This document shows positions 2,778-39,944 of a stretch of 43,747 bases of DNA, in pieces. Position numbers and translations under genes: made by a program. The stretch's first letter is position 1. Every line of letters begins with the position of its first letter. Source of the stretch: a virus; IMG/VR virus record IMGVR_UViG_3300022696_000100, one strand, 5' to 3'. The notes below the pieces were generated by a model. That model made no database searches and was not told the DNA's origin. It saw only the letters and a program-made list of their open reading frames with translations.

Positions 2778-4010
2778 ATGCCCCCTCAGAAACATTCCAG
2801 ATTTGGCCCCAGCAGTAGCGGCAGATGGATACCCTGCCCCGGATCTGTTGGGCTTCAGACGTACGGTAAGGGAAGCGGTTCTATTTATGCAGCGGAAGGC
2901 ACATTGATGCATAATATTTCAGAGGATTGCTTGTTAAACCCGGATGTAGCACCCGGGACTTTCGTAGGACAAACTTTTAATGTCGATGGCTATGACATAG
3001 AGTTTACACAGGAATTTGCTGATGCTGTTCAATTCTACTTGGATGCAGTTTGGAACCTCAAAGATGATTATCCAGATTCAACCCTTACAGTCGAGGAACG
3101 CGTCAATCTCGGCTACTATGGTAAGGAGTTCGAAAATATCTTCGGAACCGCTGATGCGATCATTAATCAACAGTTCGGGGTTCTCGTGGTGGCTGACCTC
3201 AAAGGAGGAAAAGGAGTATCTGTTGCAGCTGACTCTTCGCAGCCTAAATTGTATGCAGTTATGGCAGCAGGGAAATTGCTCGAAACCTATGAAAAAATTG
3301 TAACCGTTATTATCCAACCGCGTGACCGCACCGGTGAATATTACAAGGTGGCGGAACACGATCCAGCCGATCTCAAGGCATGGGTGGAAGATACCGTGCT
3401 GCCGGCAATTAGGAACGGCCGGTCAGACAATCCAACCTTCTGCGCCTCTGAAGCCGCATGCCGCTGGTGCGAAGCTTCCGGTCAATGTAAGTATCAGGCC
3501 GAGCTGGCATTCAAAGTGGCTGTCGATGACTTTGACATCGACGATCTTGAAAACACAACTGAAGAAAATCTAACCGCAAGACAAACTCCCCCAGGGTTGA
3601 TTGAAGACGACCAATTCTACAAGATTCTAGAACTTTCCAAATTCATCCAGGACTGGGTAGCCTCAGTCAAGACGGTAGCAAAAGAAAAACTGGAAAAGGG
3701 ACAGTTCCTGAAAAAATTGAAATTGGTTGAGGGACGATCAAACAGAACTTGGGACCCTGAACAGGATATCGAAAAAATCCTGAAGACCAAAGTACGCTTC
3801 AAAGTTAGTGAAATATATGAGAAGAAACTTCGGTCGCCAACCCAGCTAATGAAAATTGTCCCTAAAAAGAAAAAGGAAATGGTCGAAGCATTGATCATTA
3901 AACCCAAGGGGAAACCTACGGTGGCTTTCGAGTCGGATAAACGCCCGGCAATTAAGCCCACCAAAACTGCAGATACTGACTTTGAGGATATAGGAGGTAT
4001 CTTTGACTAA
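2778..4010 (+). CDS. PD-(D/E)XK nuclease, DUF2800 / Cas4-RecB-like with Cys cluster
   Basis: N-terminal FGPSSSGRWIPCPGS, the core ADLKGGKG motif and the C-terminal CASEAACRWCEASGQC cysteine cluster are typical of DUF2800 phage nucleases. Strong SD. Confidence 0.75.
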   Translation: MPPQKHSRFGPSSSGRWIPCPGSVGLQTYGKGSGSIYAAEGTLMHNISEDCLLNPDVAPGTFVGQTFNVDGYDIEFTQEFADAVQFYLDAVWNLKDDYPDSTLTVEERVNLGYYGKEFENIFGTADAIINQQFGVLVVADLKGGKGVSVAADSSQPKLYAVMAAGKLLETYEKIVTVIIQPRDRTGEYYKVAEHDPADLKAWVEDTVLPAIRNGRSDNPTFCASEAACRWCEASGQCKYQAELAFKVAVDDFDIDDLENTTEENLTARQTPPGLIEDDQFYKILELSKFIQDWVASVKTVAKEKLEKGQFLKKLKLVEGRSNRTWDPEQDIEKILKTKVRFKVSEIYEKKLRSPTQLMKIVPKKKKEMVEALIIKPKGKPTVAFESDKRPAIKPTKTADTDFEDIGGIFD

Positions 4011-4197: not shown

Positions 4198-4818
4198 ATG
4201 AAAGATACAGAAGGATTTGCCAAAACAGCTAAAAAAGTCGTAACCCCCGTGGCCCGTGCATCTTACGCTCGGCTACTGGAACCAGCCGAATCATTGAACG
4301 GGGATATGAAATACTCCGTTTCTTTGCTTTTCGAATCGGATGCTGACCTCTCTGTTATGAAGAAGGCAGCCGCCAACGCCCTCATTGAGAAGTGGGGGCC
4401 CGATAAGGAAAATTGGCCCAAAAACCTCCGCAGCCCCTTCCGTGACGGCAGCGACAAGGATGACCCCCTTTACGACGGAATTACTTTCGTCAATGTGTCA
4501 TCTGTTGAGCAGCCTGAAATTGTCAAAAAGGTAGGGAATGTTAGCGTTCCTCTGACATCCGCCAATGAAGTATATTCCGGGATGTATATCAGAACATCGC
4601 TGACTGCCTTTGCTTATGATAAAAAAGGCAACAGGGGCGTTTCGTTCGGCCTGAACAACGTTCTGAAAGTTAGGGACGGGGACAGGTTGGACGGTAGGAC
4701 AAATGCAGATACCGACTTCAAGGACTTCGAAGGTGATGATCCTATTGAGCAAGCCGGTGAAGCAGCTGAAGCCGCCAACACTGGCAGCACGTCGGCTGCT
4801 GAAGATCTGTTTGCCTAA
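4198..4818 (+). CDS. DUF2815-type ssDNA-binding-like protein
   Basis: Sits between the DUF2800 nuclease and PolA, as in known DUF2800/DUF2815/PolA modules. Has an acidic C-terminal tail (DDPIEQAGEAAEAA..EDLFA) like SSB tails. Confidence 0.6.
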   Translation: MKDTEGFAKTAKKVVTPVARASYARLLEPAESLNGDMKYSVSLLFESDADLSVMKKAAANALIEKWGPDKENWPKNLRSPFRDGSDKDDPLYDGITFVNVSSVEQPEIVKKVGNVSVPLTSANEVYSGMYIRTSLTAFAYDKKGNRGVSFGLNNVLKVRDGDRLDGRTNADTDFKDFEGDDPIEQAGEAAEAANTGSTSAAEDLFA

Positions 4819-4874: not shown

Positions 4875-7037
4875 GTGCCCCGTATATCTACAGCCGATAA
4901 GGCAAAACTCGATAAGCTGTTTAATATGGCGACCATGAGGGGTAACACCTATGAGCAGAAGGTTGCCTTACATATGTTAAATGATAGATGTAAACGGCTA
5001 GGAATTAAAGCCGTTGATCTATATGATTTTCCTAAGCCGCCAAGCAATGGGAAGGTTATACATCTTGATTATGAAACATACTCCGCTATAAATATCCAGT
5101 CTGCAGGTGCTTGGATATATTCACAAGACGTTAGTACAGATCTCATATGTTTAGCGTGGTGCTACAATGACGAAGACCCTTTAATCTGGCGAAATAATAT
5201 GTATCATCTTGATGCAGACAGTCATAAGCTGGACGTATTATTTGACTGTGTTAGAGATGGTTGGGAATTGCATGCATGGAACGCGCAGTTTGAGTATTAT
5301 ATATGGAATTACGTAGCCGCTCCTAAATTTGGGTGGCCTAGGGTACCAATTGAACAGTTTCACGATTCACAAGCTTTGGCCCTATCCCTGGCATTGCCCA
5401 TGACATTGGAAGCGTGCGGCGCTGCCTTAAATTTAGATATACAAAAGGATAAATCAGGTAAGAGGTTAATCAATAAGCTATCAAAACCCCGGAAACCTAC
5501 GAAGTATAACCCGGCTATTAGATGGCTTTACGATGATGCTGTTGATGATTACGAGGATATGTATGCCTATTGTTTACAAGACGTTAGGTCTGAACGGGCA
5601 ATATGTGATGTGTTACCTATTAGTTATCTCCCCGGATATGAACGCCGGCTGTGGGTAGAAACAGTCAAGATTAACGACAAAGGCGTGCCGGTAGATATAG
5701 ATACGGTAAACAATATTCATGGTATCCTTAAAGAGTATGAACGTGAACAAGTTGCAAAGTTAGGAAAGATAACAAATAACGAGGTAACAACCCCAGGGCA
5801 AACCTCCCGTATGAGGACATGGTTTGAAGAAAAACACGGGGTATTACTTCCCAACATGACAGCGGAAACGGTGAGTAAAGCCTTAGAAGATCCTGCTTTA
5901 CCGAAACCCGTGCACAACGTTCTTAATATCCGGCGGTTAATGTCCAGAACATCGACTAAAAAGTATGACCGGATATTGGATATGATTGACGATGAAGGAT
6001 TTGTCCATGACATCATTAGATACCATATTGCAACAACTGGTAGATGGGGCGGTTCAGGACTACAGGTCCACAATCTACCGAATGCTAAGGTGGATGATCC
6101 TGATCTTGTTTCCCGCATTGCTCGTTATCAGTCTTTACGTCTATTTCTACTGTTTTACGATGACCCTATGTTCGTTGGTTCAGCAATGGTTCGACCTATT
6201 GTACGAGCTAAACTCGGCTATAAACTCTATGTTTCGGACTTTACATCCATAGAAAATCGAGTTGTCTGCTGGCTAGCTGGGGATGAAGAGGCGCTTAGAT
6301 TATTTCGGGACCACGTTGACCAGTATAAATGGTTTGCAACTAAACTCTATTACGGGGTGGCTTACGATGATGTTACAAAACACCAGCGAACTCATGCTAA
6401 GACGTGTATCCTTGGGCTCGGGTACGGCATGGGTGTTGATAAATTCTACGAGACATGTGTCAGTTATGGATTCGATATTACCTATGCAGAATGTAAACGC
6501 TCCGTTGATTTGTACCGTGAAATATTTAATTCCATTGTACGTCTATGGTACCGCAGCTATGAATTAGCAATGAGAACCGTTAAGACAGGGGAAGCAACTG
6601 AGTATTTACATCTTAAATTTAGAAAAGAAGGCAAATACTTTTATATGATCCTACCCTCCGGTAGAAAAATTAATTATTATGATGCCCGGGTGGAACCAGT
6701 TGAAACCCCGTGGGGAGAAACTAAACCCGGTATCACCTTTATGGGCCACCAACCTTATACTAGAAAATGGGGACGCCTTAAATTAATTCCCGGCCGGCTG
6801 ATAGAAAATGCTGCACAGGGGATGGCCAGAGACGTTATGGCAGAAGCTAAATTGAGGCTAATAGACAAAGGTTATAATGTAATATTCTCGGTCCATGATG
6901 AAATCGTATCCCATGACCCTATTGATTACGGCAGTCTTGCAGAATTTGATGAGATTATGTGTGATACTAATTATAACATTTATCCCGGGTTACCCATTGA
7001 TTCGGAGGGCTTCGTCACAAACAGGTATAAAAAATAA
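4875..7037 (+). CDS. Family-A DNA polymerase with 3'-5' exonuclease domain (GTG start)
   Basis: Exo I-like HLDYETYS. Motif B-like HAKTCILGLGYGMG. Motif C-like FSVHDEIV. 720 aa. Confidence 0.85.
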   Translation: MPRISTADKAKLDKLFNMATMRGNTYEQKVALHMLNDRCKRLGIKAVDLYDFPKPPSNGKVIHLDYETYSAINIQSAGAWIYSQDVSTDLICLAWCYNDEDPLIWRNNMYHLDADSHKLDVLFDCVRDGWELHAWNAQFEYYIWNYVAAPKFGWPRVPIEQFHDSQALALSLALPMTLEACGAALNLDIQKDKSGKRLINKLSKPRKPTKYNPAIRWLYDDAVDDYEDMYAYCLQDVRSERAICDVLPISYLPGYERRLWVETVKINDKGVPVDIDTVNNIHGILKEYEREQVAKLGKITNNEVTTPGQTSRMRTWFEEKHGVLLPNMTAETVSKALEDPALPKPVHNVLNIRRLMSRTSTKKYDRILDMIDDEGFVHDIIRYHIATTGRWGGSGLQVHNLPNAKVDDPDLVSRIARYQSLRLFLLFYDDPMFVGSAMVRPIVRAKLGYKLYVSDFTSIENRVVCWLAGDEEALRLFRDHVDQYKWFATKLYYGVAYDDVTKHQRTHAKTCILGLGYGMGVDKFYETCVSYGFDITYAECKRSVDLYREIFNSIVRLWYRSYELAMRTVKTGEATEYLHLKFRKEGKYFYMILPSGRKINYYDARVEPVETPWGETKPGITFMGHQPYTRKWGRLKLIPGRLIENAAQGMARDVMAEAKLRLIDKGYNVIFSVHDEIVSHDPIDYGSLAEFDEIMCDTNYNIYPGLPIDSEGFVTNRYKK

Positions 7038-7243: not shown

Positions 7244-7578
7244 TTATTCCGGAATTTTTATCACATGTTAAAATCACCAAGGCTGATATCCAGCAAGCGG
7301 CCCCCAAGATCAAGAACTGGCTGCGAATGTTCGACATCTACAAGGAGCTAGACAAACAGGAAATTGAAAAATATATGCTCATTGAGGTGAATTACAAGCA
7401 GAGGAAATCTGTCTTAGACCGCCTGCTGGGACGATACGCAAAATTGGTTAAAGCAGAAATGGCTGAGGAATTAACCACCGTAATGGGGACAGAATTCAGG
7501 ACGGGGTATATTACACCCGTCAATGAAGAAATCGACCGGATCATTAAAGAAAATAGAAATGAAAATATCCCCGCATAA
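7234..7578 (+). CDS. Hypothetical protein (114 aa)
   Basis: ORF in an operon context. No family recognised. Confidence 0.5.
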   Translation: MDLIIPEFLSHVKITKADIQQAAPKIKNWLRMFDIYKELDKQEIEKYMLIEVNYKQRKSVLDRLLGRYAKLVKAEMAEELTTVMGTEFRTGYITPVNEEIDRIIKENRNENIPA

Positions 7579-8941
7579 ATACCAGGTCAAGGCTGTACAG
7601 CATTGGTTGGACAACCCTTGCTCTGCCCTATTTTTAGATATGGGGTTAGGCAAAACAGTTATCAGTCTTACCGGGATTAGCAATCTATTACGCCAGAAGC
7701 AGTCCAAGGGCTTCTTGATTATGGCGCCTTTAAGGGTAATATATAATGTTTGGCCTCTAGAAATTGAAAAGTGGAATCATCTTAGGCACTTATCCTATGG
7801 GATTCTCCACGGAGATAACAAAGATGCAGAATTAAAAATCAAACGGGATATATACCTCATCAATTATGAAGGATTAAAATGGCTCTATAATAAATGGAGA
7901 CGTGTGCCTAAAAGGCAGCTACCAGTTGACGGTATTATCTTCGATGAGTCTACGTCGGTAAAGAGTAGAACAACTGCCCGTTTTAAAATGCTGCGTATGA
8001 TGATAAGGGTATTTAAGTATAGGCTCATATTAACTGGTACCCCGGCACCTAATTCACTATTAGACCTATGGGCCCAGTACTACCTCCTTGATGGCGGGGA
8101 TAGGCTGTTCAATAGCTGGTATTCATACCGCAATTATTTCTTCTATCAAGCAGATTATCAGGGCTATAAGTGGGAAGCACGTGAAGGTGCATCTGTTCAA
8201 ATTAGCCAGAAAGTGAAAGATATCACAATGCGTCTCAAGGCAGAGGATTACCTCGACATGCCGAAGTTATTCATAAATGACGTTTTGTGTCAACTTCCAA
8301 GAAAATTGAAATCTGAATACGATCAGCTAGAAGAAGAATTTATTATTCGAATTAGTGATCAAACTATTACAGCAGCCAACGCTGCAGTCCTATCTGCTAA
8401 ACTACGGCAGTTCGTATCAGGGGCTATGTATACAGAAGAAGGAGGCTTAGCCCGTACACATGATGTGAAACTTGATACTTTACAGGAGGTCATAGAAGAT
8501 GACAAATCAGAACCTATCCTCATTGGAATTAACTTCCGATTTGAGTATGATCTTATCAAAACTCGGTTTCCAACTGTCCCCGTCGTTTACGGAGGAATTG
8601 ATCAGCGAACTTCGTCCCGTCTTATTAAACAGTGGAATGAAAAACGACTGCCTCTTCTTGTTGTGCATCCACTTTCTATCGCGCACGGGATTAACCTTCA
8701 ATCAGGCGGTAGAAAACTTATATGGTATAGCATTCCGTGGTCATTCGAACAGTACACCCAACTTAACCATAGACTCTATCGTCAAGGACAAACAAAGCCG
8801 GTCATTATTAATAGAATCATTGCTAGGGAAACAGTCGACGTAAGAGTGGCAAACGGTTTGTCACATAAAGAAGCTGAGGAAAAATCTTTCCTCAATAACC
8901 TTCTATCCAATTTAAGGAGGAAATATGGGATACAAAAGTAA
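7523..8941 (+). CDS. SNF2-family (SF2) helicase/ATPase; true start may be the ATG at 7559
   Basis: PHKYQ..LDMGLGKT (motif I), IFDESTSVKS (motif II), LILTGTPAPN (motif III), and C-terminal helicase motifs (HGINLQ, RLYRQGQ). Confidence 0.85.
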   Translation: MKKSTGSLKKIEMKISPHKYQVKAVQHWLDNPCSALFLDMGLGKTVISLTGISNLLRQKQSKGFLIMAPLRVIYNVWPLEIEKWNHLRHLSYGILHGDNKDAELKIKRDIYLINYEGLKWLYNKWRRVPKRQLPVDGIIFDESTSVKSRTTARFKMLRMMIRVFKYRLILTGTPAPNSLLDLWAQYYLLDGGDRLFNSWYSYRNYFFYQADYQGYKWEAREGASVQISQKVKDITMRLKAEDYLDMPKLFINDVLCQLPRKLKSEYDQLEEEFIIRISDQTITAANAAVLSAKLRQFVSGAMYTEEGGLARTHDVKLDTLQEVIEDDKSEPILIGINFRFEYDLIKTRFPTVPVVYGGIDQRTSSRLIKQWNEKRLPLLVVHPLSIAHGINLQSGGRKLIWYSIPWSFEQYTQLNHRLYRQGQTKPVIINRIIARETVDVRVANGLSHKEAEEKSFLNNLLSNLRRKYGIQK

Positions 8942-9371
8942 GGCGTACGTGGCAGGCCCTTTCTTTAACAAGACTCAAGTGGAGATTGTTGAAAGGGTTA
9001 AGAAGGAGTTGGACAAACTAGGGATAGAGTATTACTCTCCTAAGGATGAATGTCTGTATACTCCAGAAAATGATATTACCCCAGCAGAGGTATTCATGGG
9101 GAATATCAAGGCAATCATGCAAAGCGACTTTATAATCGCTATCACCGATGGGAAGGACACCGGGACTATGTTTGAAGCCGGATTTGGATGGGGTATGAGA
9201 ATTCCTATCCTGTACATTTGGGTCAATCATAACCACCAACCCTTCAACATCATGCTGGCGGAATCTGCAAGTTATGTCGCCTACGGGTATAAGGAAATGT
9301 CAGACGCCCTTAAGGAATTCAAGGCATCCTGCGCGTTTCCTAAGTATCGCCTGAAAGGAGCTGTGGAATGA
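8925..9371 (+). CDS. Nucleoside 2-deoxyribosyltransferase-like (NDT / dNMP N-glycosidase superfamily) protein
   Basis: AYVAGPFFN near the N-terminus and DTGTMFEAGFG (catalytic Glu context). 148 aa. Strong SD. Confidence 0.7.
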   Translation: MGYKSKAYVAGPFFNKTQVEIVERVKKELDKLGIEYYSPKDECLYTPENDITPAEVFMGNIKAIMQSDFIIAITDGKDTGTMFEAGFGWGMRIPILYIWVNHNHQPFNIMLAESASYVAYGYKEMSDALKEFKASCAFPKYRLKGAVE

Positions 9372-9880
9372 TCAGAGAAACGGTTAAACAGTACTACGAG
9401 AAAATTGTGCCGTTAAACTACATAGTGCGCTATAGCAATGTGCCTCGCATTAAGGATGAAACTGTTGCTGAGCACTCTTTTCTCGTAGCCGCCATTGTCG
9501 TCAAGCTGTATGAAAGGTATGAATTCGATATTGGTTGGGCATTGACTATGGCCGTTTGCCATGATCTTCCTGAATACGCAGTCAATGATGTTACTCATGC
9601 TATTAAGCGCGATCATCCCGCAGTAGCGGCAGCCCTACATGACGCTGAACGGGAAGTGATTAAAACATTACCAGAGGTTGCGCAACGTGCGTATACCGAA
9701 TTTGAAGAACAGTCTACACGTGAAGCCTTTATAGTTCACCTGGCAGACGTTATTCAATGTTCCCAGTATGCAGAAAACGAAGTACAACTGGGGAATAAGG
9801 AGCGTATGGAAAAAATTGCAATAACATCTCGGCAGCGAGCAACTTACTTCAGGCATCATTTAGAGAGGTGGCTAAGATGA
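9368..9880 (+). CDS. HD-domain phosphohydrolase, YfbR-like 5'-deoxynucleotidase family
   Basis: RYSNVPRIKDETVAEHSF..VCHDLPEYAVNDV (H...HD...D metal-ligand pattern). ATGA overlaps on both sides. Confidence 0.7.
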   Translation: MIRETVKQYYEKIVPLNYIVRYSNVPRIKDETVAEHSFLVAAIVVKLYERYEFDIGWALTMAVCHDLPEYAVNDVTHAIKRDHPAVAAALHDAEREVIKTLPEVAQRAYTEFEEQSTREAFIVHLADVIQCSQYAENEVQLGNKERMEKIAITSRQRATYFRHHLERWLR

Positions 9881-10302
9881 AATTAGTAACCATTACTGGT
9901 ATCGATAAGTCAGGGAAATCAACCCTGATGGACAAATTTAATAAGGCTACCAACTACGCTTATTACGTAACCGATCGCGACCCGTCTACTACTTTTCATT
10001 TCGATCGTGCATTGGATAGAAACAACATACCGCTTGACGACTACGACAAGTTTATGAATCGATTTCGTATGGTTCCGGGGCTTCATGTATGTTTATATTG
10101 CCCAGTACAAATTTTGATACAACGATTCCAAGCCCATAATGAACCTACCTTACCTGGAAACTTAACGTTAGGAGATCACCAGATGTCAATTATTAATCAT
10201 TTTTTATCAGCAAGATTTGAGCATTCGCTATTCCTAGACACATCAGCTATGATTGCATCAGACTGTGTAGAGCAAATGGTGCACGCCGTTAATAGTATTT
10301 AA
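9877..10302 (+). CDS. Short thymidylate-kinase-like dNMP kinase (141 aa)
   Basis: P-loop GIDKSGKST and a following DRDPST (TMK DR motif). I moved the start to ATG 9877 (ATGA overlap with the HD gene, GAGG upstream). Confidence 0.6.
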   Translation: MKLVTITGIDKSGKSTLMDKFNKATNYAYYVTDRDPSTTFHFDRALDRNNIPLDDYDKFMNRFRMVPGLHVCLYCPVQILIQRFQAHNEPTLPGNLTLGDHQMSIINHFLSARFEHSLFLDTSAMIASDCVEQMVHAVNSI

Positions 10303-10360
10303 CCTATAATTTATTTGGAGCTAACAGGAGTTAAATCGTTAGCTCAAGGGGGTAAGTCCA

Positions 10361-11281
10361 ATGCCTATTAATAATAAACTACCCGATTTAAAATTACCGG
10401 TAGCATTGAAAACTGGTGAGAAGCCTCAAACTGTATATGAGGATCAGGTCCACGCCTTAGGGGTTACGCTCATGTACGCCCCTTCTTACAATGATCTGTT
10501 AAGCTTTATTCCGGAATTTGGCACCGCCACATGGCGTGATACGCCCCATGAGGAGATAACAGATGAAGAACGCCGGGCAGTCATACTGGATCTATTCGAT
10601 GGCAAAATTCTACCAACTGCTTATGAATGCATTAACCTTGTTTTCAGATTCGAAGGGATGGATATCATTGACACGACTCATCTATTGCGCCACCGTATGT
10701 TTAGTTTTTCTGCTCAATGCACTGCTGATAGGGACTTACGCCATGATAATGCTGTTGTTAAATCTAGTATCATGGCCAATGCTGACTTTTATGAAAGGTA
10801 TCGACAAATTACTGAAGCGTCTAAACAATTATACGCTGATATGATCGATTCTAATGAGGTTAGCATACTGGATGCCAGAACAATCCTCACCAGGAACTTG
10901 AACACTTTCTACTATGTCCGGGGAAACCTTAAGGACTGTATGGCATATATCCAGCAGCGGTTGGATGAACAGATCCAGCCGACATCGGACAATATCCTGG
11001 CCACGCTCATGTGGATTAGGATATGTGAAAAATATCCTATGCTGGTGGATAGAATAAAAATCGGGGGCATTGATAATTGGTACGTCAAAACCGCTCCCAC
11101 CGGCAGGAGCAGTAATATCTATATGCCCAAAAAGGAAAATGACGTCTTTGAATATAAGAAGCAGTGGTTTCTATATAATAAACGTCGTGAAGATTTTCCA
11201 GGGTATGAAACGTATCAGGCCGGTAAAGATGCTGCTATAGAACATCTGGCCAAGATCAAACAACGGGGGTTTACTATATGA
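10361..11281 (+). CDS. Divergent ThyX-like (flavin-dependent thymidylate synthase fold) protein
   Basis: LLRHRMFSFSAQCTADRD aligns to the ThyX RHRxxSxxxxSxRY signature but with the second Ser replaced by Cys and RY lost. DARTILTRNLNT and IQQRLDEQIQ match later ThyX blocks. Carries an extra C-terminal extension of about 70 aa. Confidence 0.65.
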   Translation: MPINNKLPDLKLPVALKTGEKPQTVYEDQVHALGVTLMYAPSYNDLLSFIPEFGTATWRDTPHEEITDEERRAVILDLFDGKILPTAYECINLVFRFEGMDIIDTTHLLRHRMFSFSAQCTADRDLRHDNAVVKSSIMANADFYERYRQITEASKQLYADMIDSNEVSILDARTILTRNLNTFYYVRGNLKDCMAYIQQRLDEQIQPTSDNILATLMWIRICEKYPMLVDRIKIGGIDNWYVKTAPTGRSSNIYMPKKENDVFEYKKQWFLYNKRREDFPGYETYQAGKDAAIEHLAKIKQRGFTI

Positions 11282-11715
11282 AAGACATTCTAGATGAACA
11301 GAATTCGCTACAAGCTCGGTACTCAACCATGAGGGGGTATCCTCTATTAAACCCCAGCGAATTCGACCACTACTCGGTAGGTGAAGTTTATGATTTCATT
11401 CGCCACATGAAGTTCTGTTTGAACGAGGAACTTACAGAGCTGATGGAAGCTATGGGCAATAATAGCAGAGATATACACAAGCCCTGGTCAAAAGACTATT
11501 TCAAAATCAGGGCTGCACCGTCAATATCTACTCCCCATATGCGGGAGGAAGCTATTGATGCTTTATGCTTCCTAATGAATATTATGCTGGCTGTGGGTAT
11601 TACTCCCAGCAATCTTGAGGTAGAGTATTTCAAGGTACTTGACAAAAATATGAAAAGGATTGAAGCTTATGAAGAGGCCCAAAGAAAGCGCGGTGGAAGA
11701 ACGGTTGGTTCGTAA
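11278..11715 (+). CDS. MazG-like all-alpha nucleoside triphosphate pyrophosphohydrolase
   Basis: LNEELTELMEA and EEAIDALCFLMNIMLAVGI (the EExxE/ExxD helix pattern of the MazG family). ATGA overlap with the ThyX-like gene. Confidence 0.65.
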   Translation: MKDILDEQNSLQARYSTMRGYPLLNPSEFDHYSVGEVYDFIRHMKFCLNEELTELMEAMGNNSRDIHKPWSKDYFKIRAAPSISTPHMREEAIDALCFLMNIMLAVGITPSNLEVEYFKVLDKNMKRIEAYEEAQRKRGGRTVGS

Positions 11716-12046
11716 GATTAAGGCTATTGGCGGCATGGCTTTGAAATGGCCTGCCATCGGGAAGAAAGGTGTTCCTGATAGGATTATAATTCATCCGGCT
11801 ATCGGCACTGTGTTTGTGGAGGTTAAGCGGGAGCCAAACCAGGAAGCCACTATCTTGCAACAGCATGTTCAAGATGAAATCAGACGGGCCGGCGGTATTG
11901 CTTTTGTCGTCGGGGGTTATGAAGAAGTTGATCAGTTTATTGAGTTCGTAGTTGCTTACGGAAAGGATGAAAATGTCGCAGTCAGAAAAGAACAATCAAG
12001 AATTCAAAGGACTGGTCTTCGAATTCGAGATCGGCTTGGCCTTTAG
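11660..12046 (+). CDS. VRR-NUC domain nuclease
   Basis: GVPDRIIIH..VFVEVKR (PD-ExK) followed by QQHVQDEIRRAGGIAFVV, typical of VRR-NUC. Confidence 0.7.
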   Translation: MKLMKRPKESAVEERLVRKIKAIGGMALKWPAIGKKGVPDRIIIHPAIGTVFVEVKREPNQEATILQQHVQDEIRRAGGIAFVVGGYEEVDQFIEFVVAYGKDENVAVRKEQSRIQRTGLRIRDRLGL

Positions 12047-12119
12047 AACCATAAAAATCGTCGCGGGCTGCGTATGCGGCATCGCCTTGGCTATAATCTG
12101 TTATTTCATATTCACTTAA
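11973..12119 (+). CDS. Possible 48-aa tail-anchored membrane peptide (below the ORF-track cutoff)
   Basis: Hand translation gives MSQSEKNNQEFKGLVFEFEIGLAFRTIKIVAGCVCGIALAIICYFIFT. AAGGA lies upstream. Its stop overlaps the SD of the next gene and it fills the 12047-12128 gap. Confidence 0.3.
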   Translation: MSQSEKNNQEFKGLVFEFEIGLAFRTIKIVAGCVCGIALAIICYFIFT

Positions 12120-12128
12120 GGAGGGAAA

Positions 12129-12449
12129 ATGAAGCGAGGAATTTATGAAGAGCATTGGGTTGACGGAAATAAAGCACCTGCTGGCGGTGTTTCCTCGGGA
12201 CGAGGATTCGCTATTAGCTGGCAGAATGGCCCGCTCGGTATCGGTAAGGAGAGGAAAGAGCCAAACGGCGCGTTTGTTGAGGACATACTTGAGGCAGTCA
12301 AGGGGAGAATCGACTTTTACCAAAACAGCCCATTCAAATGCAACTACAACGAAATGGCAATCCTGTGTGTTAAAGAAGCCTTGGGTTATCTCAATAGACG
12401 AACTAGTGATAGAGAAGCCCGAGGCGTTGAAGGCACACACCAGCAGTAA
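12129..12449 (+). CDS. Small protein resembling the N4 gp49 / Sf6 gp66 (Acb2-type) family
   Basis: Pattern WQNGP..NGAFVEDIL..R..FYQ..PFKC..N..A...KEAL.YL..RT..R..RGVEGT. From memory this matches the conserved pattern of that family. Needs an HMM check. Confidence 0.5.
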   Translation: MKRGIYEEHWVDGNKAPAGGVSSGRGFAISWQNGPLGIGKERKEPNGAFVEDILEAVKGRIDFYQNSPFKCNYNEMAILCVKEALGYLNRRTSDREARGVEGTHQQ

Positions 12450-12459
12450 GGAGGGAAAA

Positions 12460-12849
12460 TTGAAAGACAAACCTATTCTATGTCTAGATTTTGACGGAGT
12501 CATCCACAGCTATTCCAGCGGATGGCAAGGTGCGCGCATGATACCGGACCCACCGGTGAAAGGCGCTTTACGTTTTCTCAATGATGCGCAGCGGTTCTTT
12601 AAGGTTGCTATATATTCGTCTCGAAGTGGCCAGGAGGGCGGTCTGGAGGCCATGCAGAAATGGTTAAAGGCTAGTTTGATGGAACGCTATCCGTATTCCT
12701 ATGATGATATTTACGAAGGAATCTTGTGGCCGACAGAGAAACCGCCTGCGTTCCTTACGATTGACGACAGAGCAATGCGGTTTGAAGGCCATTTCCCCAA
12801 CCCGGAATGGCTCACTTATTTCAAACCCTGGAATAAATCTGGGGTATAA
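12460..12849 (+). CDS. HAD-superfamily phosphatase (nucleotidase-like), TTG start
   Basis: ILCLDFDGVIH (DxDG motif I) and TIDDR near the C-terminus. TAAGGAGGG upstream of the TTG. The upstream part of track ORF 12145..12849 overlaps the previous gene and was trimmed. Confidence 0.65.
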   Translation: MKDKPILCLDFDGVIHSYSSGWQGARMIPDPPVKGALRFLNDAQRFFKVAIYSSRSGQEGGLEAMQKWLKASLMERYPYSYDDIYEGILWPTEKPPAFLTIDDRAMRFEGHFPNPEWLTYFKPWNKSGV

Positions 12850-12931
12850 CAAAATCCAGGCTGCTACCTGGTGTTAGATTTGGGAGGCCGCGTATGACTT
12901 TTTGATTATGAGTATTAGGTAACAGAATGGG

Positions 12932-15320: not shown

Positions 15321-17600
15321 TTAGATATTAAGCATAGCTTCCAGCTCTAGAACCCGTCGTTCTTGATCCTGGGCTACTTTAATTAAAAACGGTATAAAAC
15401 GATCATAATAAATGCCTTTAAGTTTACCGTTATCTTGAAATGTAAGATCCGGGTTAACCTCAAATAGTTCTTCTGCAATCATTCCAAAATCGTTAAAACT
15501 TAAATCGTTTTTTGGATTAAAAGATACAGGATTAACATCAAATATCCAGTCAATATTTTCAATGGGTTTGATATTAGTTTTAACTTCCCGTGTAGATGAA
15601 TCATATCCCATTAGGCCTGAGGAATCAACATAAACAGCTTTACCAGCGCTAGTACTGGTATTATATATAGACACGGCTCTAAAGTATGTGACTTGATTGA
15701 AGTCCGCTGTTTCTGCATAAACTCGTACTATATCCCAATCAAGTGTACTACTGCCTATATATAAGTTGTATGTAGTAGTTGACTTAGGGCGAATATACAT
15801 GATACTTGAGTTATAATATAAATTTGCATCTTGAGCATCTCCAAAATATATTGCTTCATTGGACCCTATATACATACTGCCTATTTCTTTTGAAGTGCTA
15901 CCAATATTAGAGTTTGACGTAGGTAGTAAGTTGCCAAGCTCATCAATTTCCCACCTTGTTGTCGGGAGTGCGCCTGTTCGGAGATAAATTGACCCAGATG
16001 CGTTATTAGCATCGATATAAACGCCTCCTGCACCTGTGCTTTGTATCAGAAAAACGTCTTCAGTTCCATTATATCCTATTTGCGCATCTTGAGAAGCTCC
16101 AAAATAGTGAAAACCGTTATCGGCTTGATAGATATGTTCAATTTCTTCTGATGTAGAACCAATATCGTACGTAGCTGCTGAACTGGGCACAAGATCACCA
16201 GTAGAATTAATATTCCAACGTTCTGTTGCATCAGTATAGAACTTAATTTCAGTAACTGCGTTTATATAGATATCGGCCCAGGAATTCGCATTGGTTCCGA
16301 TCTTACAATTTCCAGTTCCATCAACGCTCGGAATAATTTCAAAATCAGCACCGTCCCAATATACAGTTACATCTTGAGCATCTCCAAAATAATGAGCAGA
16401 ATCATCACCTTGGTAAATATCTTTAATTCTTAATGCAGTAGTGCCTATATCATAAGAATCAGCAGTTAGCGGAGTAAAATGACCAGAAGCATCTATTGCC
16501 CAGTGATCAGTTCCGTCTGTATGGAAATATAGCGGCTCAGCTCCTGTAGTTCCCAGTTTAAATATTCCAGCTGCTGCATATTGTATAAAAGCATCTTGAC
16601 TATCGCCAAAATAAACGTAGGCATCGTCTTCAATATAAATATTCTTTACCGGAACACTTGACATGCCTATATTTTGTCCGCCAAGCATAGGCCCAACATT
16701 CCCGCTTACTATTGTCCAATCGGTTTCAGCATGATAGTATCTAAGCTCAGCAAATGCACCATTTGAGATATCAACAGATGCTTGTCCGAAAATTGTAGCG
16801 GCATCTAATGTATCGATAGTTAAGTCGTAAGCCGACCCATTAAACATTGAGATAATAAAACCATCCATCGCTGCTGACATAGCTGGAAGAGAAAATGTCT
16901 TATCGACAGCAGTTCCAGAACCCAGCACAAGTAGCTTTCCGCGGTCTGTTGCTAGTACCTCGTAATCGTCTGTTTTTTCATCTACACTTAAAATTTCGCC
17001 GGCCACTCGGTGCCAGTTTGTTATATCTTCACTGGGGGTATTCGCAAGATTTGGACTAGTTCTGCTAAAGTAAAAAGCTCCAAGATACTCAACAAAATCG
17101 CCTATTGCGTAGGAGACATTAGCGTTGTATATTTGGACAAAAGCAATTTCTTCCCAAGATGACGTTTCAACGGCTGGGTTTTTATTGAGATTGCTTGCTA
17201 CGATTGATCGATAAATCGCTAAATTGTATTTAACAATATCTCCAATACCGTAGGTGGTAGCATTATCCCAAGCTTCAAGACCGGCACCTCCGCCGCTGCT
17301 ACTTGAAGCAGCTACTTCTACAGGGTCGAACATCTGGACTTGAACACCAGGGTTGCCTTCATCTAGCGGATCATACGTGTATGAAACAACACGATAACTA
17401 CCGGTCCCAAATACGCTGGGGCATCTACCTTCGGCGTCAAGCTGCAGGGGGTTTTCATTAGGAACAGCCAGAGCTGAATCTGAGTAAGTATTCTTAAGAG
17501 TGTTATTAGAACCTGACTCTAAGAATTTAAGCCATCCTAACGCTAATGGATCACCGGCTCCGTCTAAAAATTGTGCGAAAGCTTCAATTACTCTACCCAT
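15321..17600 (-). CDS. Tail fibre 2 with CBM5/12-like repeats, 4 internal repeat modules and a C-terminal S74 intramolecular chaperone domain
   Basis: N-terminus is paralogous to the 930-aa fibre. W..ATTYGIGDIVKY..Y repeats. Four copies of DIGS..IY...YFGD.QDA. C-terminus YVDSSGLMGYDSSTREVKTNIKPI..FGMIAEEL..LELEAML. Confidence 0.8.
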   Translation of the reverse strand: MGRVIEAFAQFLDGAGDPLALGWLKFLESGSNNTLKNTYSDSALAVPNENPLQLDAEGRCPSVFGTGSYRVVSYTYDPLDEGNPGVQVQMFDPVEVAASSSSGGGAGLEAWDNATTYGIGDIVKYNLAIYRSIVASNLNKNPAVETSSWEEIAFVQIYNANVSYAIGDFVEYLGAFYFSRTSPNLANTPSEDITNWHRVAGEILSVDEKTDDYEVLATDRGKLLVLGSGTAVDKTFSLPAMSAAMDGFIISMFNGSAYDLTIDTLDAATIFGQASVDISNGAFAELRYYHAETDWTIVSGNVGPMLGGQNIGMSSVPVKNIYIEDDAYVYFGDSQDAFIQYAAAGIFKLGTTGAEPLYFHTDGTDHWAIDASGHFTPLTADSYDIGTTALRIKDIYQGDDSAHYFGDAQDVTVYWDGADFEIIPSVDGTGNCKIGTNANSWADIYINAVTEIKFYTDATERWNINSTGDLVPSSAATYDIGSTSEEIEHIYQADNGFHYFGASQDAQIGYNGTEDVFLIQSTGAGGVYIDANNASGSIYLRTGALPTTRWEIDELGNLLPTSNSNIGSTSKEIGSMYIGSNEAIYFGDAQDANLYYNSSIMYIRPKSTTTYNLYIGSSTLDWDIVRVYAETADFNQVTYFRAVSIYNTSTSAGKAVYVDSSGLMGYDSSTREVKTNIKPIENIDWIFDVNPVSFNPKNDLSFNDFGMIAEELFEVNPDLTFQDNGKLKGIYYDRFIPFLIKVAQDQERRVLELEAMLNI

Positions 17601-20392
17601 TATGCAGCCTCCAATGTGGCTATACGTTTATTTAGGTTGTGAATTTCTTGTAGCATCAAGCCCACGAGGTTTCTGTGCTTAACTGCTGCCGGAGTTTTAG
17701 CCCCAGTTTTAGGATCAATATCATAATCAACTAACTCAGGATTCACTAATTCAACTTCTTCAGCTATTAGACCAAATTCTTTTTCGCCGGGTACAGCTCC
17801 ATGAACTTTATCGGGATCATATTCATATTCTTGAGGCGTAAGATCATAAATCCAGCTAAGGTCTGCATCTTTTAACTTTTTGAAGTTGTTTTTATTTTCT
17901 TTGGTGGATGATAAGTACCCTAATCGGCCAGAGCTATTTACGTAACAATCTCTGCCAGTTAACGATGCCGAATAGATATTGGGACAAGTGAAAGTAGCAG
18001 ATGGCAAATATATATTTCCAGTACCGTCTATTTGAAATCTAATTGTGCCACCCGTATAGATATACATCGTAGAGTCGCTATTTATATAGACGTGATCCCA
18101 GTTCATAGCAGTACGGCCTATCTTTAGTATTCCGGTATCATCTGTAGTAGGCTCGATGCGTAATTCTGTAGTTGAATTATCCCAACCTATAATACCATCA
18201 TTTGATGCACCCAAACGGATATACCCATCATCAGCTACATATATATCTTCACAGTAAAGACTACCTACTGGGTAAGAAGCACTACCTATATCAAGGGCAC
18301 CAGCTAATGGAAACAAGTCCCCACCGACATCGATTAACCATTGAGTAGTTGAATCTGTTACTAGACCTAATTGACCAGTACTTCCATACACGCCAATTAG
18401 CAGATGCTGTCCCGTATCAGCAGGTATATGTTTAATATAGGTCGATCCAGAATGATTATACATCTCCAATTGTTGATCAGCGCCTGCAAAAATTGCACCA
18501 CTATTATTCATGTAAAGATTTGTTACGCCACTAGTAGCATTCCCAATATCAGGGCTAAGTGTAGATGTTTGTGGAATCAAATCCCCTGTTGTACTTTTTA
18601 TATACCATGCGTTATCAGAATCATCAGAGGCTGTAGCAACTCTAAGTACTATGCTATTAGCATCTGGCGTATCTTGAGTACCTATATTTTGAGATGGTCC
18701 TATTTGTATATAGTTACCAGTAGAACATCTAACTTGCAAAACCGTACCTGCTGCATCATAAATAGCACCGTTAGGCCCTACATAAAAATATTCTCCATTA
18801 TCCATAAATATAGAGCCAGTTTCATAAGTAGCCGAGCCTATATCTCTAGCTCCGCCTATAGGTAAAAAATCTCCACTTGTGTCTATTTCCCATTGGCTAA
18901 CTGCATAAGGGGCAAAAACAATAGAATCACCGCTAACAGCTGGCGTAGATAAAATGACTTGATTTAACGCATGGATTGTTACGTTTGACGAACCCGATAC
19001 AATATAACTATCTTGACTATCGCTTAAATAGATATATGAAGCATCGCCCAGGTATATATTCGCAAAATCTGCAGTATCACTACCTAAGTCGTAAGTCGCA
19101 GCTGCTGCTGGGAGTATATCGCCAGTTACAGTTAGCGGCATGAATATTGAAACTGCAGTAGCATAAGCATGAATAATATCTACGCCACCCGCAATAAGAT
19201 TTACTTCATCTGCATCAGGCCTACCTACACCCGTGTTAATATCATCTACAAAGGTAAACGTAGGAACAATAGAGCTACCTGCCTGAGAATATATTGCACC
19301 TCCTAAAGTTGTATTACTATAGAGGTAGTTGGCGTTCATTATCCAAGCAAGAACACCAGCCATAGCAAAGTCAACTCTACCTGCACTAGGGCTATAAAAG
19401 CCTGTCTGATCATCAAATTGAATTGTAGGAGAAGCTGCATCATCGTCGGATGGGAGTATTAATTTACCGCCAGTATCTAAATTAACATCTCCGTAAAAAT
19501 ACGCATCTTGACTTTGATCTAATAAAAAACCCAACGTAGGTCCTGCACCAGTATATATTTCAAAATCACCAGTTGCATGCTGGACTTGAATTTTAATGTC
19601 GCCTGTTGTAGTCTTAATATAGAAGTCGGTACCGTCATGAACTATATGAGCGTCTTGCCCATCCCCGAAATAATGATAACTATTATCACCCTGATAAAAA
19701 TTGCCTATCTCATTCCCTACTGCGCCTAAATTATATCCAGCTATGTTAGGCTGGAGAGTTGTGCCTGATTCACTCCAGTTAAGAAAGATAGTACCATTTC
19801 CCACAGGTGTCCACCATGTGGGAGAAGTAAGTGGAGTATTGCCCACATTAGAATCAGCCAGAGAAAAATACAAACCATTGCCAGAAATAACCACATCATT
19901 AAGCGCGTATGTGACGTTGACATTCCAATACCTCAAAAAATCGATTTTTTCCCATTTATCGAGATTAGTATCTGGAGCGTTACCCAAATTGCTGTTTATT
20001 AACGACCGATAATAAAAGCCGTTATGTGTAGCAATATCGAGTATTGAATATTCTGTGGTAGCTTCCCACGTTTCAAAATTTGTACCGGAACCTGTGGATG
20101 AGTTTTCAGCGTTTACTGGATCAAACTGTGCGACCTGAACGCCGGGCAGGTGCAGTACTGGGTCATCTTTATATAGGACAACTCTATATTGCCCTGTCCC
20201 AAACGCATCTGGGCAGCGTCCTTCGGCGTCAAGTTGAAGGGGATTAGAATTAGGTATTGAAAGTTCCTCATCAGCGTAGGTATTTTTATCCGTATTATTA
20301 GTATTTGAATACAGAAAATGCAGCCACCCATCGGCAAGCGGATTACCTTCCCCGTCAAAAAATTGTGTGAACGCGGCAATAACTCTGGACAT
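17600..20392 (-). CDS. Tail fibre 1 (930 aa), paralogue of fibre 2, with a C-terminal S74 intramolecular chaperone domain
   Basis: Shared N-terminal ~95 aa (MSRVIAAFTQFFDGEGNPL..NPLQLDAEGRCP). Five or more degenerate DIGS..Y..YFGD modules. C-terminus YVNSSGRLGYLSSTKENKNNFKKL..FGLIAEEV..NKRIATLE. Confidence 0.8.
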   Translation of the reverse strand: MSRVIAAFTQFFDGEGNPLADGWLHFLYSNTNNTDKNTYADEELSIPNSNPLQLDAEGRCPDAFGTGQYRVVLYKDDPVLHLPGVQVAQFDPVNAENSSTGSGTNFETWEATTEYSILDIATHNGFYYRSLINSNLGNAPDTNLDKWEKIDFLRYWNVNVTYALNDVVISGNGLYFSLADSNVGNTPLTSPTWWTPVGNGTIFLNWSESGTTLQPNIAGYNLGAVGNEIGNFYQGDNSYHYFGDGQDAHIVHDGTDFYIKTTTGDIKIQVQHATGDFEIYTGAGPTLGFLLDQSQDAYFYGDVNLDTGGKLILPSDDDAASPTIQFDDQTGFYSPSAGRVDFAMAGVLAWIMNANYLYSNTTLGGAIYSQAGSSIVPTFTFVDDINTGVGRPDADEVNLIAGGVDIIHAYATAVSIFMPLTVTGDILPAAAATYDLGSDTADFANIYLGDASYIYLSDSQDSYIVSGSSNVTIHALNQVILSTPAVSGDSIVFAPYAVSQWEIDTSGDFLPIGGARDIGSATYETGSIFMDNGEYFYVGPNGAIYDAAGTVLQVRCSTGNYIQIGPSQNIGTQDTPDANSIVLRVATASDDSDNAWYIKSTTGDLIPQTSTLSPDIGNATSGVTNLYMNNSGAIFAGADQQLEMYNHSGSTYIKHIPADTGQHLLIGVYGSTGQLGLVTDSTTQWLIDVGGDLFPLAGALDIGSASYPVGSLYCEDIYVADDGYIRLGASNDGIIGWDNSTTELRIEPTTDDTGILKIGRTAMNWDHVYINSDSTMYIYTGGTIRFQIDGTGNIYLPSATFTCPNIYSASLTGRDCYVNSSGRLGYLSSTKENKNNFKKLKDADLSWIYDLTPQEYEYDPDKVHGAVPGEKEFGLIAEEVELVNPELVDYDIDPKTGAKTPAAVKHRNLVGLMLQEIHNLNKRIATLEAA

Positions 20393-38982: not shown

Positions 38983-39091
38983 ACGTGATTCCGATTCAAC
39001 CAATGACTGTCATTCATTCTATAATTTACATTCAACTTATACATTTCATTCAATCAATGAATGTCCTTCATTCGTTGAATCGGAATCACGT
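38983..39091. repeat. 109-bp imperfect palindrome with perfect 18-bp outer arms
   Basis: ACGTGATTCCGATTCAAC (38983-39000) and its exact reverse complement GTTGAATCGGAATCACGT (39074-39091). The inner arms carry mirrored AATGA..TCATT elements (39002-39018 and 39056-39072). Confidence 0.85.
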
Positions 39092-39092
39092 A

Positions 39093-39215
39093 ATAAATGA
39101 GATTCATTTTTTACCGTGTAATTATGAATTAAACACCAGTTAGGATGTGAAGGCGAATTAATAAATATATAAGTTTTATAATATAAATGACATTCATTGT
39201 ATAAATGACATTCAT
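39093..39215. promoter_or_regulatory. Three copies of the 15-mer ATAAATGANATTCAT (operator or iteron candidates), left array
   Basis: Copies at 39093-39107, 39183-39197 and 39201-39215. Each has a palindromic core AATGA-N3-TCAT(T). The last two start 18 bp apart. Confidence 0.6.
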
Positions 39216-39216
39216 A

Positions 39217-39414
39217 GTATTTATTAAATATATTATTTTAACGGCAAAAACTATATATAAAATATTTTTTTATTATTATATATTTAAAGAATAAAAATAA
39301 TATATATAATAAATATTAATAACAAAATAAATATGTTAGATAAATGTCTTAATATATATAACCTAAATTTATAATAAATATAACTTTTTATACTTAAAAT
39401 ATTTAAAAAAAACC
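39217..39414. other. Extremely A+T-rich tract (about 90% A+T over ~200 bp)
   Basis: I counted about 18 G/C in 180 bases (39241-39420). It lies between the two site arrays. Confidence 0.8.
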
Positions 39415-39443
39415 TTTACTTTTATAAATGAATTTGGTATAAT
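39415..39443 (+). promoter_or_regulatory. Strong sigma70-like early promoter
   Basis: TTTACT (39415-39420), 17-nt spacer containing ATAAATGAAT, and a perfect TATAAT (39438-39443). Confidence 0.6.
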
Positions 39444-39504
39444 GATTTATAAAACAAAATAAATAATGATTATTTATTTTGAAACCGCCGAAAGGAGATT
39501 TAAA

Positions 39505-39708
39505 ATGAAAAAATTTATGATGATGGGAAGTTATGTGAAGGTCCGGTTGATGAAAGATAATTTCAAAGGAATGAAGGATGAGGAAATTATCAAGGATGTG
39601 AGGAATAATATGGATAAGAAATCCAAATATATCAATAAAGACGTGATGGAATGTGTGAATTGGTATAGGAAAGATTTTTTCCGGAAGGGGATAAAAATAG
39701 GAGGATAA
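39505..39708 (+). CDS. Small Lys-rich protein (67 aa), paralogous to the C-terminal domain of the 172-aa protein at 42767..43285
   Basis: AAAGGAG upstream of ATG 39505 (track start 39466 trimmed). 25/50 identities by eye with residues 106-154 of the 172-aa protein. Confidence 0.65.
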   Translation: MKKFMMMGSYVKVRLMKDNFKGMKDEEIIKDVRNNMDKKSKYINKDVMECVNWYRKDFFRKGIKIGG

Positions 39709-39718
39709 AATATAATTA

Positions 39719-39765
39719 GGAATTAGGAATTGGACAGAAGTCCAATTCCTAATTCCCATTCTTTT
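39719..39765 (+). terminator. Rho-independent terminator
   Basis: Perfect 17-bp stem GGAATTAGGAATTGGAC / GTCCAATTCCTAATTCC, AGAA loop, then cattctttt. Confidence 0.75.
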
Positions 39766-39836: not shown

Positions 39837-39944
39837 TGATAAACTCGGTTCACAGATTAAACGGAATTCACCGTACTGTGACCAAATCCGAAACACCTGG
39901 AATTATGAAAAAAATTGATTTTGAAAATCGAAAGGAGCTTTGAA

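Follow-up and report, generated by a model that had tools for sequence, protein, structure and literature searches.

A divergent ThyX-like enzyme with two constant partners in a phage gene module: a candidate pathway to a non-canonical DNA pyrimidine

The DNA analyzed was the IMG/VR virus record IMGVR_UViG_3300022696_000100 (43,747 nucleotides, hereafter the window), and the subject was a region of nucleotide-enzyme genes at 8925-12849, built around a divergent relative of the thymidylate synthase ThyX (the ThyX-like protein). Eight co-directional genes were found on the + strand of this region, where an earlier sequence-only reading had counted seven; gene calls made independently on a Logan contig of 99% identity gave the same boundaries, the genes named in that reading were found on the + strand at the positions it gave, and its enzyme assignments held in essence once profile and structure searches had been run. 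The first five genes, all + strand, encode a nucleoside 2-deoxyribosyltransferase (NDT; 8925-9371, 148 aa; core partner 1), an HD phosphohydrolase of YfbR/DatZ type (9368-9880, 170 aa; core partner 2), a minimal P-loop kinase resembling thymidylate kinases (TMPK) and deoxynucleoside kinases (dNK) (9877-10302, 141 aa, with the start at 9877 taken from the independent gene calls), the ThyX-like protein, a predicted flavoenzyme at the centre of the module (10361-11281, 306 aa), and a MazG-like or dimeric-dUTPase-like all-alpha NTP pyrophosphatase (11278-11715, 145 aa). These five genes are translationally coupled: ATGA start/stop overlaps were present at 9368, 9877 and 11278, and the NDT gene overlapped the upstream SNF2 helicase gene by 17 bp. 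A 58-bp gap lies upstream of the ThyX-like gene, which the kinase gene precedes. A sigma-70 promoter scan of the + strand block gave no signal above chance. The best explanation of the data is a conserved, almost phage-only module that rewires the pyrimidine deoxynucleotide pool. The favored reading, to which we assign a probability of roughly 0.45, is a base-replacement-type pathway with a ThyX-fold modifier, which would give a non-canonical DNA pyrimidine.

The ThyX-like protein matched Pfam PF02511 (Thy1) with 57.8 bits (gathering cut-off 24.8), scored 30.0 bits with the NCBIfam thyX equivalog TIGR02170, below the cut-off of 87.9, and matched PDB ThyX sequences only at E ~0.5. The AlphaFold2 model had a pLDDT of 92.7, and a Foldseek search with this model returned ThyX/FDTS and PolB only (probability 1.0, TM 0.5-0.7, identity 14-20%). 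A ThyX fold is therefore predicted for the protein. The label 'divergent ThyX-like enzyme', given at first from the letters of the DNA, was thus upheld, with a ThyX fold by AlphaFold2 and Foldseek, yet a score under the TIGR02170 cut-off and membership of a discrete phage family.

Residues were numbered by alignment to T. maritima ThyX, the aligned sequence being 100% identical to the PDB chain. The window protein carries the motif RHRMFSFSAQCTADR, in which the canonical RHRxxSxxxxSxRY (T. maritima R78-Y91) is incomplete, and family-wide the canonical motif is replaced by RHRxxSFSAx[C/V/T..][TSH][AG]DR. T. maritima E58, R78-H79-R80, S83, R147, R174 and D176 were retained, and R78, R80, R147 and R174 (R110, R112, R173 and R200 in the window) were invariant in the family. 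E86 was replaced by A, S88 by C (in the window), R90 by A or G, Y91 by D followed by R124, and H178 by Q. T. maritima H53, which we take to be the folate-stacking histidine, in the role it has in the folate complexes of that enzyme, aligned to a nearly invariant Leu84. The alignment suggests that the FAD-binding and uracil-activating residues are kept and that the canonical substrate loop and the folate-stacking histidine are gone. Relative to T. maritima ThyX, the protein is extended by ~35 residues at the N-terminus and ~90 at the C-terminus. The cysteine at the S88 position (Cys120) was invariant in the 120 closest homologs, V, T, A or G stood there in ~21 of 85 loci, and several distant representatives that retain NDT and HD also had a residue other than cysteine. 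Cys120 was consequently dropped as a catalytic nucleophile or a family-defining residue.

As a separate observation, the ThyX-like proteins of five loci (L054, L056, L066, L068 and L073) have RYR in place of the flavin-binding RHR, together with the loop SFSADCSGDKWW; the same loci carry fusions of the kinase to NDT and a miniature ThyA-like gene (described below).

The Thy1 score over the gathering threshold, the ThyX fold and the retained FAD- and uracil-binding arginines favor ordinary dTMP supply, a substantial alternative that the sequence-only reading had allowed for too and that we rate somewhat lower. The ThyX-like protein would then be a divergent but functional dUMP-to-dTMP synthase; HD, NDT, kinase and MazG-like protein (with dCMP deaminase at other loci) would feed dCTP or dNMP through the deoxynucleoside and deoxyuridine (dU) to dUMP, giving more dTTP to an AT-rich phage, and virion DNA would be canonical. 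The replaced substrate-loop and folate-stacking residues tell against this alternative.

Family size was assessed by a HMMER scan of 1.84 billion cluster representatives, in which the ThyX-like family had 191 relatives (50%-identity clusters) at E<=1e-3. With just 191 relatives in an exhaustive scan, the proteins are a small discrete family and not the fringe of the large ThyX family. Scores of a canonical-ThyX hidden Markov model (HMM) on the collected loci were likewise bimodal, with true ThyX at 326-352 bits and all ThyX-like proteins at 14-42 bits. Among 185,579 species genomes a single match was found, located on a contig of 26 kb from a metagenome-assembled genome, and beyond this contig these genomes contained no cellular or prophage homolog that gave a functional hint. 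Among 50,697 phage records there was likewise one match, Geobacillus phage GR1 (OK896991, a 79-kb siphovirus), the sole cultured carrier. No DNA-level relatives were found among cultured phages. The family occurs almost exclusively in virulent phages.

Beside this family, a second cultured phage was noted. Streptococcus phage vB_SagM-GXN1 (PQ819873, 176 kb; L086 6459-8808) has an unannotated NDT gene and a gene for a YfbR-like HD protein, followed by a 432-aa protein annotated as thymidylate synthetase, in which the Thy1 match is degenerate and sub-threshold (E 2.4e-4) and the RHR flavin motif is lost. These genes are a more remote form of the NDT, HD and ThyX-like trio.

The NDT matched PF05014 (E 1.2e-14, 54.9 bits against a threshold of 28.8) and phrog_7995 (E 3.8e-21). 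Its best solved relatives were true NDTs (6evs, 2e-6; 7m5h, 2.5e-5), with the catalytic glutamate of FE(A)G aligned and present in a D-x-G-T-x-F-E-x-G segment; the C-terminus (...GAVE) resembles a known NDT C-terminus (...GAVY), and the N-terminal YVAGPFFN is of NDT type. No chain of the dNMP N-glycosidase branch (DNPH1/Rcl, MilB, BlsM) was among its PDB matches at E<=1. The protein, first described as 'NDT/dNMP-glycosidase-like', thus resembles true nucleoside 2-deoxyribosyltransferases and looks like a nucleoside-level base-exchange enzyme; a dNMP glycosidase was ruled out by the same best relatives.

The HD protein matched PF12917 (YfbR-like; E 2.4e-18, 66.9 bits), PF13023 (E 1.2e-17, 64.7 bits) and phrog_7076, named 'dATP triphosphohydrolase' (DatZ-type; E 1.2e-17), and its PDB relatives were 2cqz, 3mzo, 1xx7 and HDDC2. 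The metal ligands H36, H65-D66 and a later Asp aligned to 2cqz; H36 was invariant in the family, as was R21-Y22. At the specificity positions Y22/N24 are found (N, M or I at position 24 family-wide) where DatZ has W20/I22. No PDB DatZ was among the sequence matches of the HD protein and no PurZ was present in the genome; on these grounds and on Y22/N24 a true DatZ was ruled out, phrog_7076 being the sole link. The HD product would be a deoxynucleoside, an NDT substrate, because both YfbR-type and DatZ-type activity release a deoxynucleoside.

DatZ of Z-genome phages belongs to the YfbR-like/HD_3 proteins, restriction-resistant phage contigs carry NDT together with DatZ-type HD and PolA, and one such NDT favors canonical deoxyadenosine, which was read as canonical-nucleoside depletion (bioRxiv 10.1101/2025.10.22.683976). 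By analogy, HD and NDT of the window would be the same pair as that proposed for canonical-nucleoside depletion in those phages. Weak relatives of both proteins were found in a few cultured phages, including YerA41, vB_Yru_GN1 and Carin-5; the DNA of YerA41 and Carin-5 is T-hypermodified (PMC9023294, PMC12686479), and vB_Yru_GN1 matched HD and NDT at the same identity as YerA41.

The kinase has the P-loop GIDKSGKST and a DR motif (D36-R37). Its family profile matched SPbeta YorR (2axp, 9e-15), thymidylate kinases (6.5e-8 to 1e-5) and deoxynucleoside kinases (~1e-3), and the protein, only 141 aa long, scored 19.6 bits with TIGR00041 (cut-off 83.25), which is consistent with a minimal member of the TMPK/dNK superfamily. 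The MazG-like protein matched phrog_173 (E 3.5e-11) and phrog_18650 'dUTPase' (E 1.6e-9), and Pfam dUTPase_2 only at E 0.065; its ExxE...ExxD ligands E51, E54, E91 and D94 were invariant, and its family profile matched the dimeric dUTPase 5mil (5e-4) and also the MazG-like 4qgp.

Gene neighborhoods were compared across 86 loci (the window, four from Tara/ENA, GR1 and 80 from IMG/VR), annotated with iterated HMMs built from the window proteins. NDT and HD genes were adjacent to and co-directional with the ThyX-like gene in 84 of the 86 loci, or 84/84 of those evaluable; at the two loci without a complete trio the contig ends just upstream. Both orders were found (NDT, HD, ThyX-like and ThyX-like, NDT, HD), and the trio occurred in three unrelated replication backbones, namely PolA/SNF2/VRR-NUC (41 loci, window included), a marine DnaE/RecA/RNR type (27 loci) and the GR1 type. 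Since ThyX-like identity falls to ~40% across loci and the trio is kept across unrelated backbones, functional coupling, not inherited synteny, is indicated. NDT, HD and the ThyX-like protein form an obligate three-gene core, which in the window is extended by the TMPK-like kinase and the MazG-like pyrophosphatase. Thousands of phages have ThyX or ThyA without NDT and HD, whereas the ThyX-like family was never found without them, which counts against ordinary dTMP supply. The polymerase encoded by the phage is not a defining part of the module, since the module was found with PolA-, DnaE- and PHP-type replication modules.

Other nucleotide genes were frequent near the ThyX-like gene. MazG-like (dUTPase-like) genes were found in 45 loci and dCMP deaminase in 35; both are classic dTMP-pathway neighbors and as such speak for ordinary dTMP supply, but with a deaminase at hand the nucleoside detour would be needless as a source of dUMP. 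The TMPK-like kinase was present in 29 loci, and in several (e.g. L052, L066) it was fused N-terminally to NDT, which ties the kinase to the nucleoside step. In 38 loci a small DUF6378 protein (~100 aa) is encoded directly upstream of the ThyX-like gene (e.g. L076 9676-9999) and fills the gap between the HD and ThyX-like genes, where the window has the kinase and the 58-bp gap instead.

Four loci encode an intact canonical ThyX (RHRxxSxxxxSTRY) no more than a few kb from the ThyX-like gene; in a fifth the second copy is degenerate, and one further locus had a ThyA-like gene. L053 and L060 share the backbone of the window and have the order NDT, HD, ThyX-like, MazG, ThyX. Two thymidylate synthases are unusual in a 40-kb genome, so another job is suggested for the ThyX-like enzyme. 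The co-occurrence would argue against mere thymidylate-synthase redundancy, and it counts against ordinary dTMP supply too.

All GR1-type loci embed within the module a phrog_2888 'alpha-glucosyltransferase' gene (E 6e-53) and a gene for a nitroreductase-family flavin reductase, and seven marine loci have a sugar-nucleotide epimerase/dehydratase gene right after the ThyX-like gene. The glucosyltransferase-family and sugar-nucleotide genes recall, by likeness of gene content, phages with glucosylated hydroxymethyl-pyrimidines, and the glucosyltransferase-family gene inside GR1-type modules is a further point against ordinary dTMP supply. The GR1 publication contains no statement about GR1 DNA.

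A small ThyA-like domain (150-200 aa) was observed at 22 related loci, either beside the ThyX-like protein (L001 12969-13424, L045 10968-11423, L066 10552-11154) or fused to the TMPK-like kinase, as in the C-terminal halves of L002 13767-14711 and L056 11073-11987; the window does not have it. Equivalents of E. coli ThyA C146, R166, S167 and D169 are retained, and an Asp stands at the N177 position, a dCMP signature. The domain had no Pfam match and weak phrog_160 matches; with hhalign, c48 aligned with the kinase C-terminal domain (97%) and c87 with EcThyA residues 145-179 (E 1e-3).

These loci bear on whether cytosine could be the target. The ThyX-like protein would then turn dCMP into 5-methyl- or 5-hydroxymethyl-dCMP, the MazG-like protein would be a dCTPase, and HD and NDT would remove canonical deoxycytidine. 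T4 gp42 and the Xp12 enzyme modify dCMP with a ThyA fold. The co-occurrence of canonical ThyX mirrors T4, which has td as well as gene 42, and the Asp at the N177 position of the mini ThyA-like domain in 22 loci points the same way. So does dCMP deaminase beside a thymidylate-synthase homolog in 35 loci, an arrangement strongly enriched in C-modified metavirome contigs (bioRxiv 10.1101/2024.12.05.627091). We nevertheless consider a cytosine-directed pathway improbable. The arginine equivalent to T. maritima R174, invariant in the family, polarizes O4 of uracil, and a clash with the N4 amino group of cytosine would be expected; no acidic residue was seen at this position, and the mini ThyA-like domain is missing from the window.

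A base-replacement pathway through the ThyX-like enzyme would most likely replace thymine, because the uracil-polarizing arginine is invariant, and could run as follows. HD would strip the phosphates from a canonical pyrimidine deoxynucleotide, most likely deoxythymidine (dT) nucleotides derived from host DNA, leaving the deoxynucleoside. NDT would swap the base, e.g. thymine for uracil, so that the canonical nucleoside is removed and its deoxyribose recycled as dU. The kinase would re-phosphorylate the new nucleoside or nucleotide, and the MazG-like enzyme would convert dUTP (or dTTP/dCTP) to the monophosphate; at other loci a deaminase could also supply dUMP. Flavin chemistry of the ThyX-like enzyme would add a non-methyl C5 substituent to dUMP, most likely 5-hydroxymethyl, with 5-hydroxy as the alternative. 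The product would be phosphorylated and incorporated by the phage PolA for some or all thymidine. In its full form, to which we give slightly less than even odds, the proposal would make the ThyX-like protein the first flavin enzyme of ThyX fold to produce a non-thymine 5-substituted pyrimidine deoxynucleotide with which DNA bases are replaced wholesale. HD and NDT would be its obligatory 'erase and recycle' pair, supplying substrate from the dT nucleotides of the host, and the system would be widespread among uncultured phages of the sea, fresh water and soil.

Known systems were compared with the module part by part. Canonical ThyX/FDTS (EC 2.1.1.148; T. maritima TM0449, M. tuberculosis ThyX, PBCV-1 A674R) has in common with the ThyX-like protein the fold, the Pfam Thy1 match, RHR, S83, E58, R147 and R174. 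The ThyX-like protein differs from it in being only 14-20% identical and under the equivalog cut-off, in the replacement of H53 and of the second half of the motif, in its terminal extensions, and in its constant link to NDT and HD, sometimes with canonical ThyX encoded beside it. PolB, the polyoxin UMP/dUMP C5-methylase (PDB 4p5a/4p5b) that was among the Foldseek matches, is a precedent for a ThyX fold outside housekeeping dTMP synthesis; unlike the ThyX-like protein, it belongs to cellular secondary metabolism and has the canonical motif, and at 14-15% identity it is no closer than ordinary ThyX.

The Z-genome (2-aminoadenine) system, DatZ/MazZ/PurZ with a proposed NDT, has its logic and three of four protein families in common with the module: a YfbR-like HD protein yields the deoxynucleoside, NDT can remove it, a MazG-like protein gives the monophosphate, and a paralog of a housekeeping enzyme modifies it. 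In the module a ThyX paralog, with a pyrimidine as its target, would stand in as modifier for PurZ, a PurA paralog, and the HD specificity residues differ from those of DatZ, as given above. The ThyA-fold systems (T4 gp42/gp56/gp1 for 5-hydroxymethylcytosine, hmC; the dUMP hydroxymethylase, dTMPase and dUTPase of SPO1/SP8 for 5-hydroxymethyluracil, hmU; the Xp12 dCMP methylase) share the parts list, namely a pyrophosphatase, a dNMP modifier paralogous to thymidylate synthase, a dedicated kinase and an anti-canonical nucleotidase, to which GR1-type loci add the glucosyltransferase-family gene. They differ in that the modifier of the module has the unrelated ThyX fold and flavin chemistry, NDT is obligatory, and the modified base is a predicted one. 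The deoxynucleoside route (E. coli YfbR-Cdd-Tdk-ThyA; T. brucei HD nucleotidase and thymidine kinase; Weiss 2007, cited in PMC4491880, and PMC5098729) combines, as the module does, a YfbR-type 5'-deoxynucleotidase, conversion of the base at nucleoside level, a kinase and a thymidylate synthase, but uses a cytidine deaminase and not NDT, scattered housekeeping genes and not a cassette, and a canonical thymidylate synthase.

Full-text literature searches and targeted reading turned up no description of a cassette of ThyX-like, NDT and HD genes, nor of any characterized family member; the sequence-only reading had likewise known of no described ThyX-fold replacement system. The pathway would work like the known base-replacement pool systems, the new elements being a ThyX fold (not ThyA or PurA) and an obligatory NDT.

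Several points weigh against base replacement, some of them in favor of an ordinary supply of dTMP. No gene of thymidylate-synthase type other than the ThyX-like gene is present in the window's complete genome, where no second thymidylate synthase was found, and in most loci; parsimoniously, therefore, it would be the thymidylate synthase of the phage. Plain dTMP synthesis would account just as well for the retention of the uracil-activating residues, and Cys120 supplies no mechanistic argument. No glycosyltransferase or other recognizable hypermodification gene that could act downstream of the module was found in the window genome. Canonical ThyX beside the module in four loci fits poorly with the destruction of dT nucleotides. 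A YfbR-type nucleotidase paired with a kinase is an ordinary and established way to dUMP and dTMP in two organisms: in E. coli, YfbR acts in the deoxycytidine pathway to thymidylate, YfbR-Cdd-Tdk (Weiss 2007, cited in PMC4491880), and in T. brucei the route through a YfbR-like nucleotidase and thymidine kinase is obligatory (PMC5098729). The literature searched describes no nucleoside chemistry or enzyme activity for any family member. The base-replacement logic first proposed for the region was thus strengthened in part, by the discrete and divergent ThyX-like family, its obligate link to HD and NDT, the co-occurrence of canonical ThyX and the GR1-type glucosyltransferase gene, and weakened in part, the polymerase not being defining and the window genome having no hypermodification gene.

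Three + strand genes follow the MazG-like gene. The VRR-NUC nuclease gene (11669-12046; phrog_93 endonuclease, E 1.1e-22) is a neighbor from the replication/recombination module and lies outside the nucleotide module; in other loci it accompanies SNF2 and PolA, not the ThyX-like core. Between it and the HAD gene lies a gene for a 106-aa protein (12129-12449) that matched PDB 8kbb (E 2.2e-11), 7uav (E 3.7e-10) and phrog_2428 (E 6.9e-20). It is a homolog of Tad1 (Thoeris anti-defence 1, a sponge protein); the first description as Acb2-like was overturned by the Tad1 match. No Tad1 homolog was found in the 85 other loci.

The Tad1 gene raises the question of nucleotide-pool counter-defence, in which DNA would be unchanged and the module would rebuild or buffer dNTP pools, or destroy a toxic or immune nucleotide, under host defence. 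Proximity of the module to an anti-Thoeris gene in the window genome and confinement of the family to virulent phages would suit this explanation, and nucleotide-based conflict systems often contain NDT-like and HD domains. We regard it as quite unlikely, and marginally more so than a cytosine target. The Tad1 adjacency is unique to the window locus, and the constant ThyX-fold C5-pyrimidine partner, together with the frequent genes for dCMP deaminase and dUTPase-like proteins, suggests that precursors are made in bulk, not signalling.

The last gene of the region encodes a small HAD-type phosphatase (12460-12849, + strand, 129 aa) with an N-terminal DFDGV motif and a match to phrog_23773 (E 7e-24). 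Its TTG start at 12460 is preceded by the Shine-Dalgarno sequence AAGGAGGG and lies 745 bp past the stop of the MazG-like gene, in line with the distance of about 750 bp given earlier. None of the 85 other loci yielded a homolog; the phosphatase is possibly accessory to the module and is not conserved with it. A bidirectional terminator-like hairpin at 12856-12871 ends the + strand block.

Upstream of the region, a + strand replication block comprises an exonuclease (2778-4010), a gp2.5-like single-stranded DNA-binding protein (4198-4818), the family-A polymerase PolA (4875-7037), found as first described, and the SNF2 helicase (7523-8941), directly upstream of the nucleotide-enzyme genes. Structural and packaging genes (terminase, portal, scaffold, major head, head closure) are on the − strand from ~13 to 38 kb. 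An exact 99-nt direct repeat stands at both ends (1-99 = 43649-43747); the window is therefore a complete phage genome with 43,648 unique bases, either circularly permuted or with terminal repeats. Two other repeat arrays were observed. At 38986-39853, in the AT-rich stretch (GC 0.33) that separates the packaging genes from the early ones, at least 8 copies of an 18-nt-spaced repeat with the core AATGACATTCAT form three clusters that resemble origin iterons or operator arrays. At 15820-19703, five diverged copies of a 60-nt repeat lie in two large tail-fibre-like − strand genes (15321-17600 and 17600-20392) and encode the recurring peptide motif YFGD.QD...Y.

To our knowledge, every pre-replicative pyrimidine replacement known from phage DNA (hmC; 5-methylcytosine; hmU; 5-hydroxycytosine, 5hoC) depends on a ThyA-fold enzyme. 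If base replacement through the ThyX-like enzyme is correct, its ThyX-fold counterpart would be a second, mechanistically different and flavin-based entry to modified DNA, and removal of canonical nucleosides by HD and NDT would extend from purine (Z) genomes to pyrimidines. It would also account for a gene trio frequent in viromes yet nearly absent from cultured phages. DNA of this kind would be resistant to restriction enzymes, and sequencing may under-sample or mishandle it, which would matter in surveys of viromes and in the search for enzymes. Should plain dTMP be the product, the obligate nucleoside-level cassette would still be an undescribed phage way to thymidylate.

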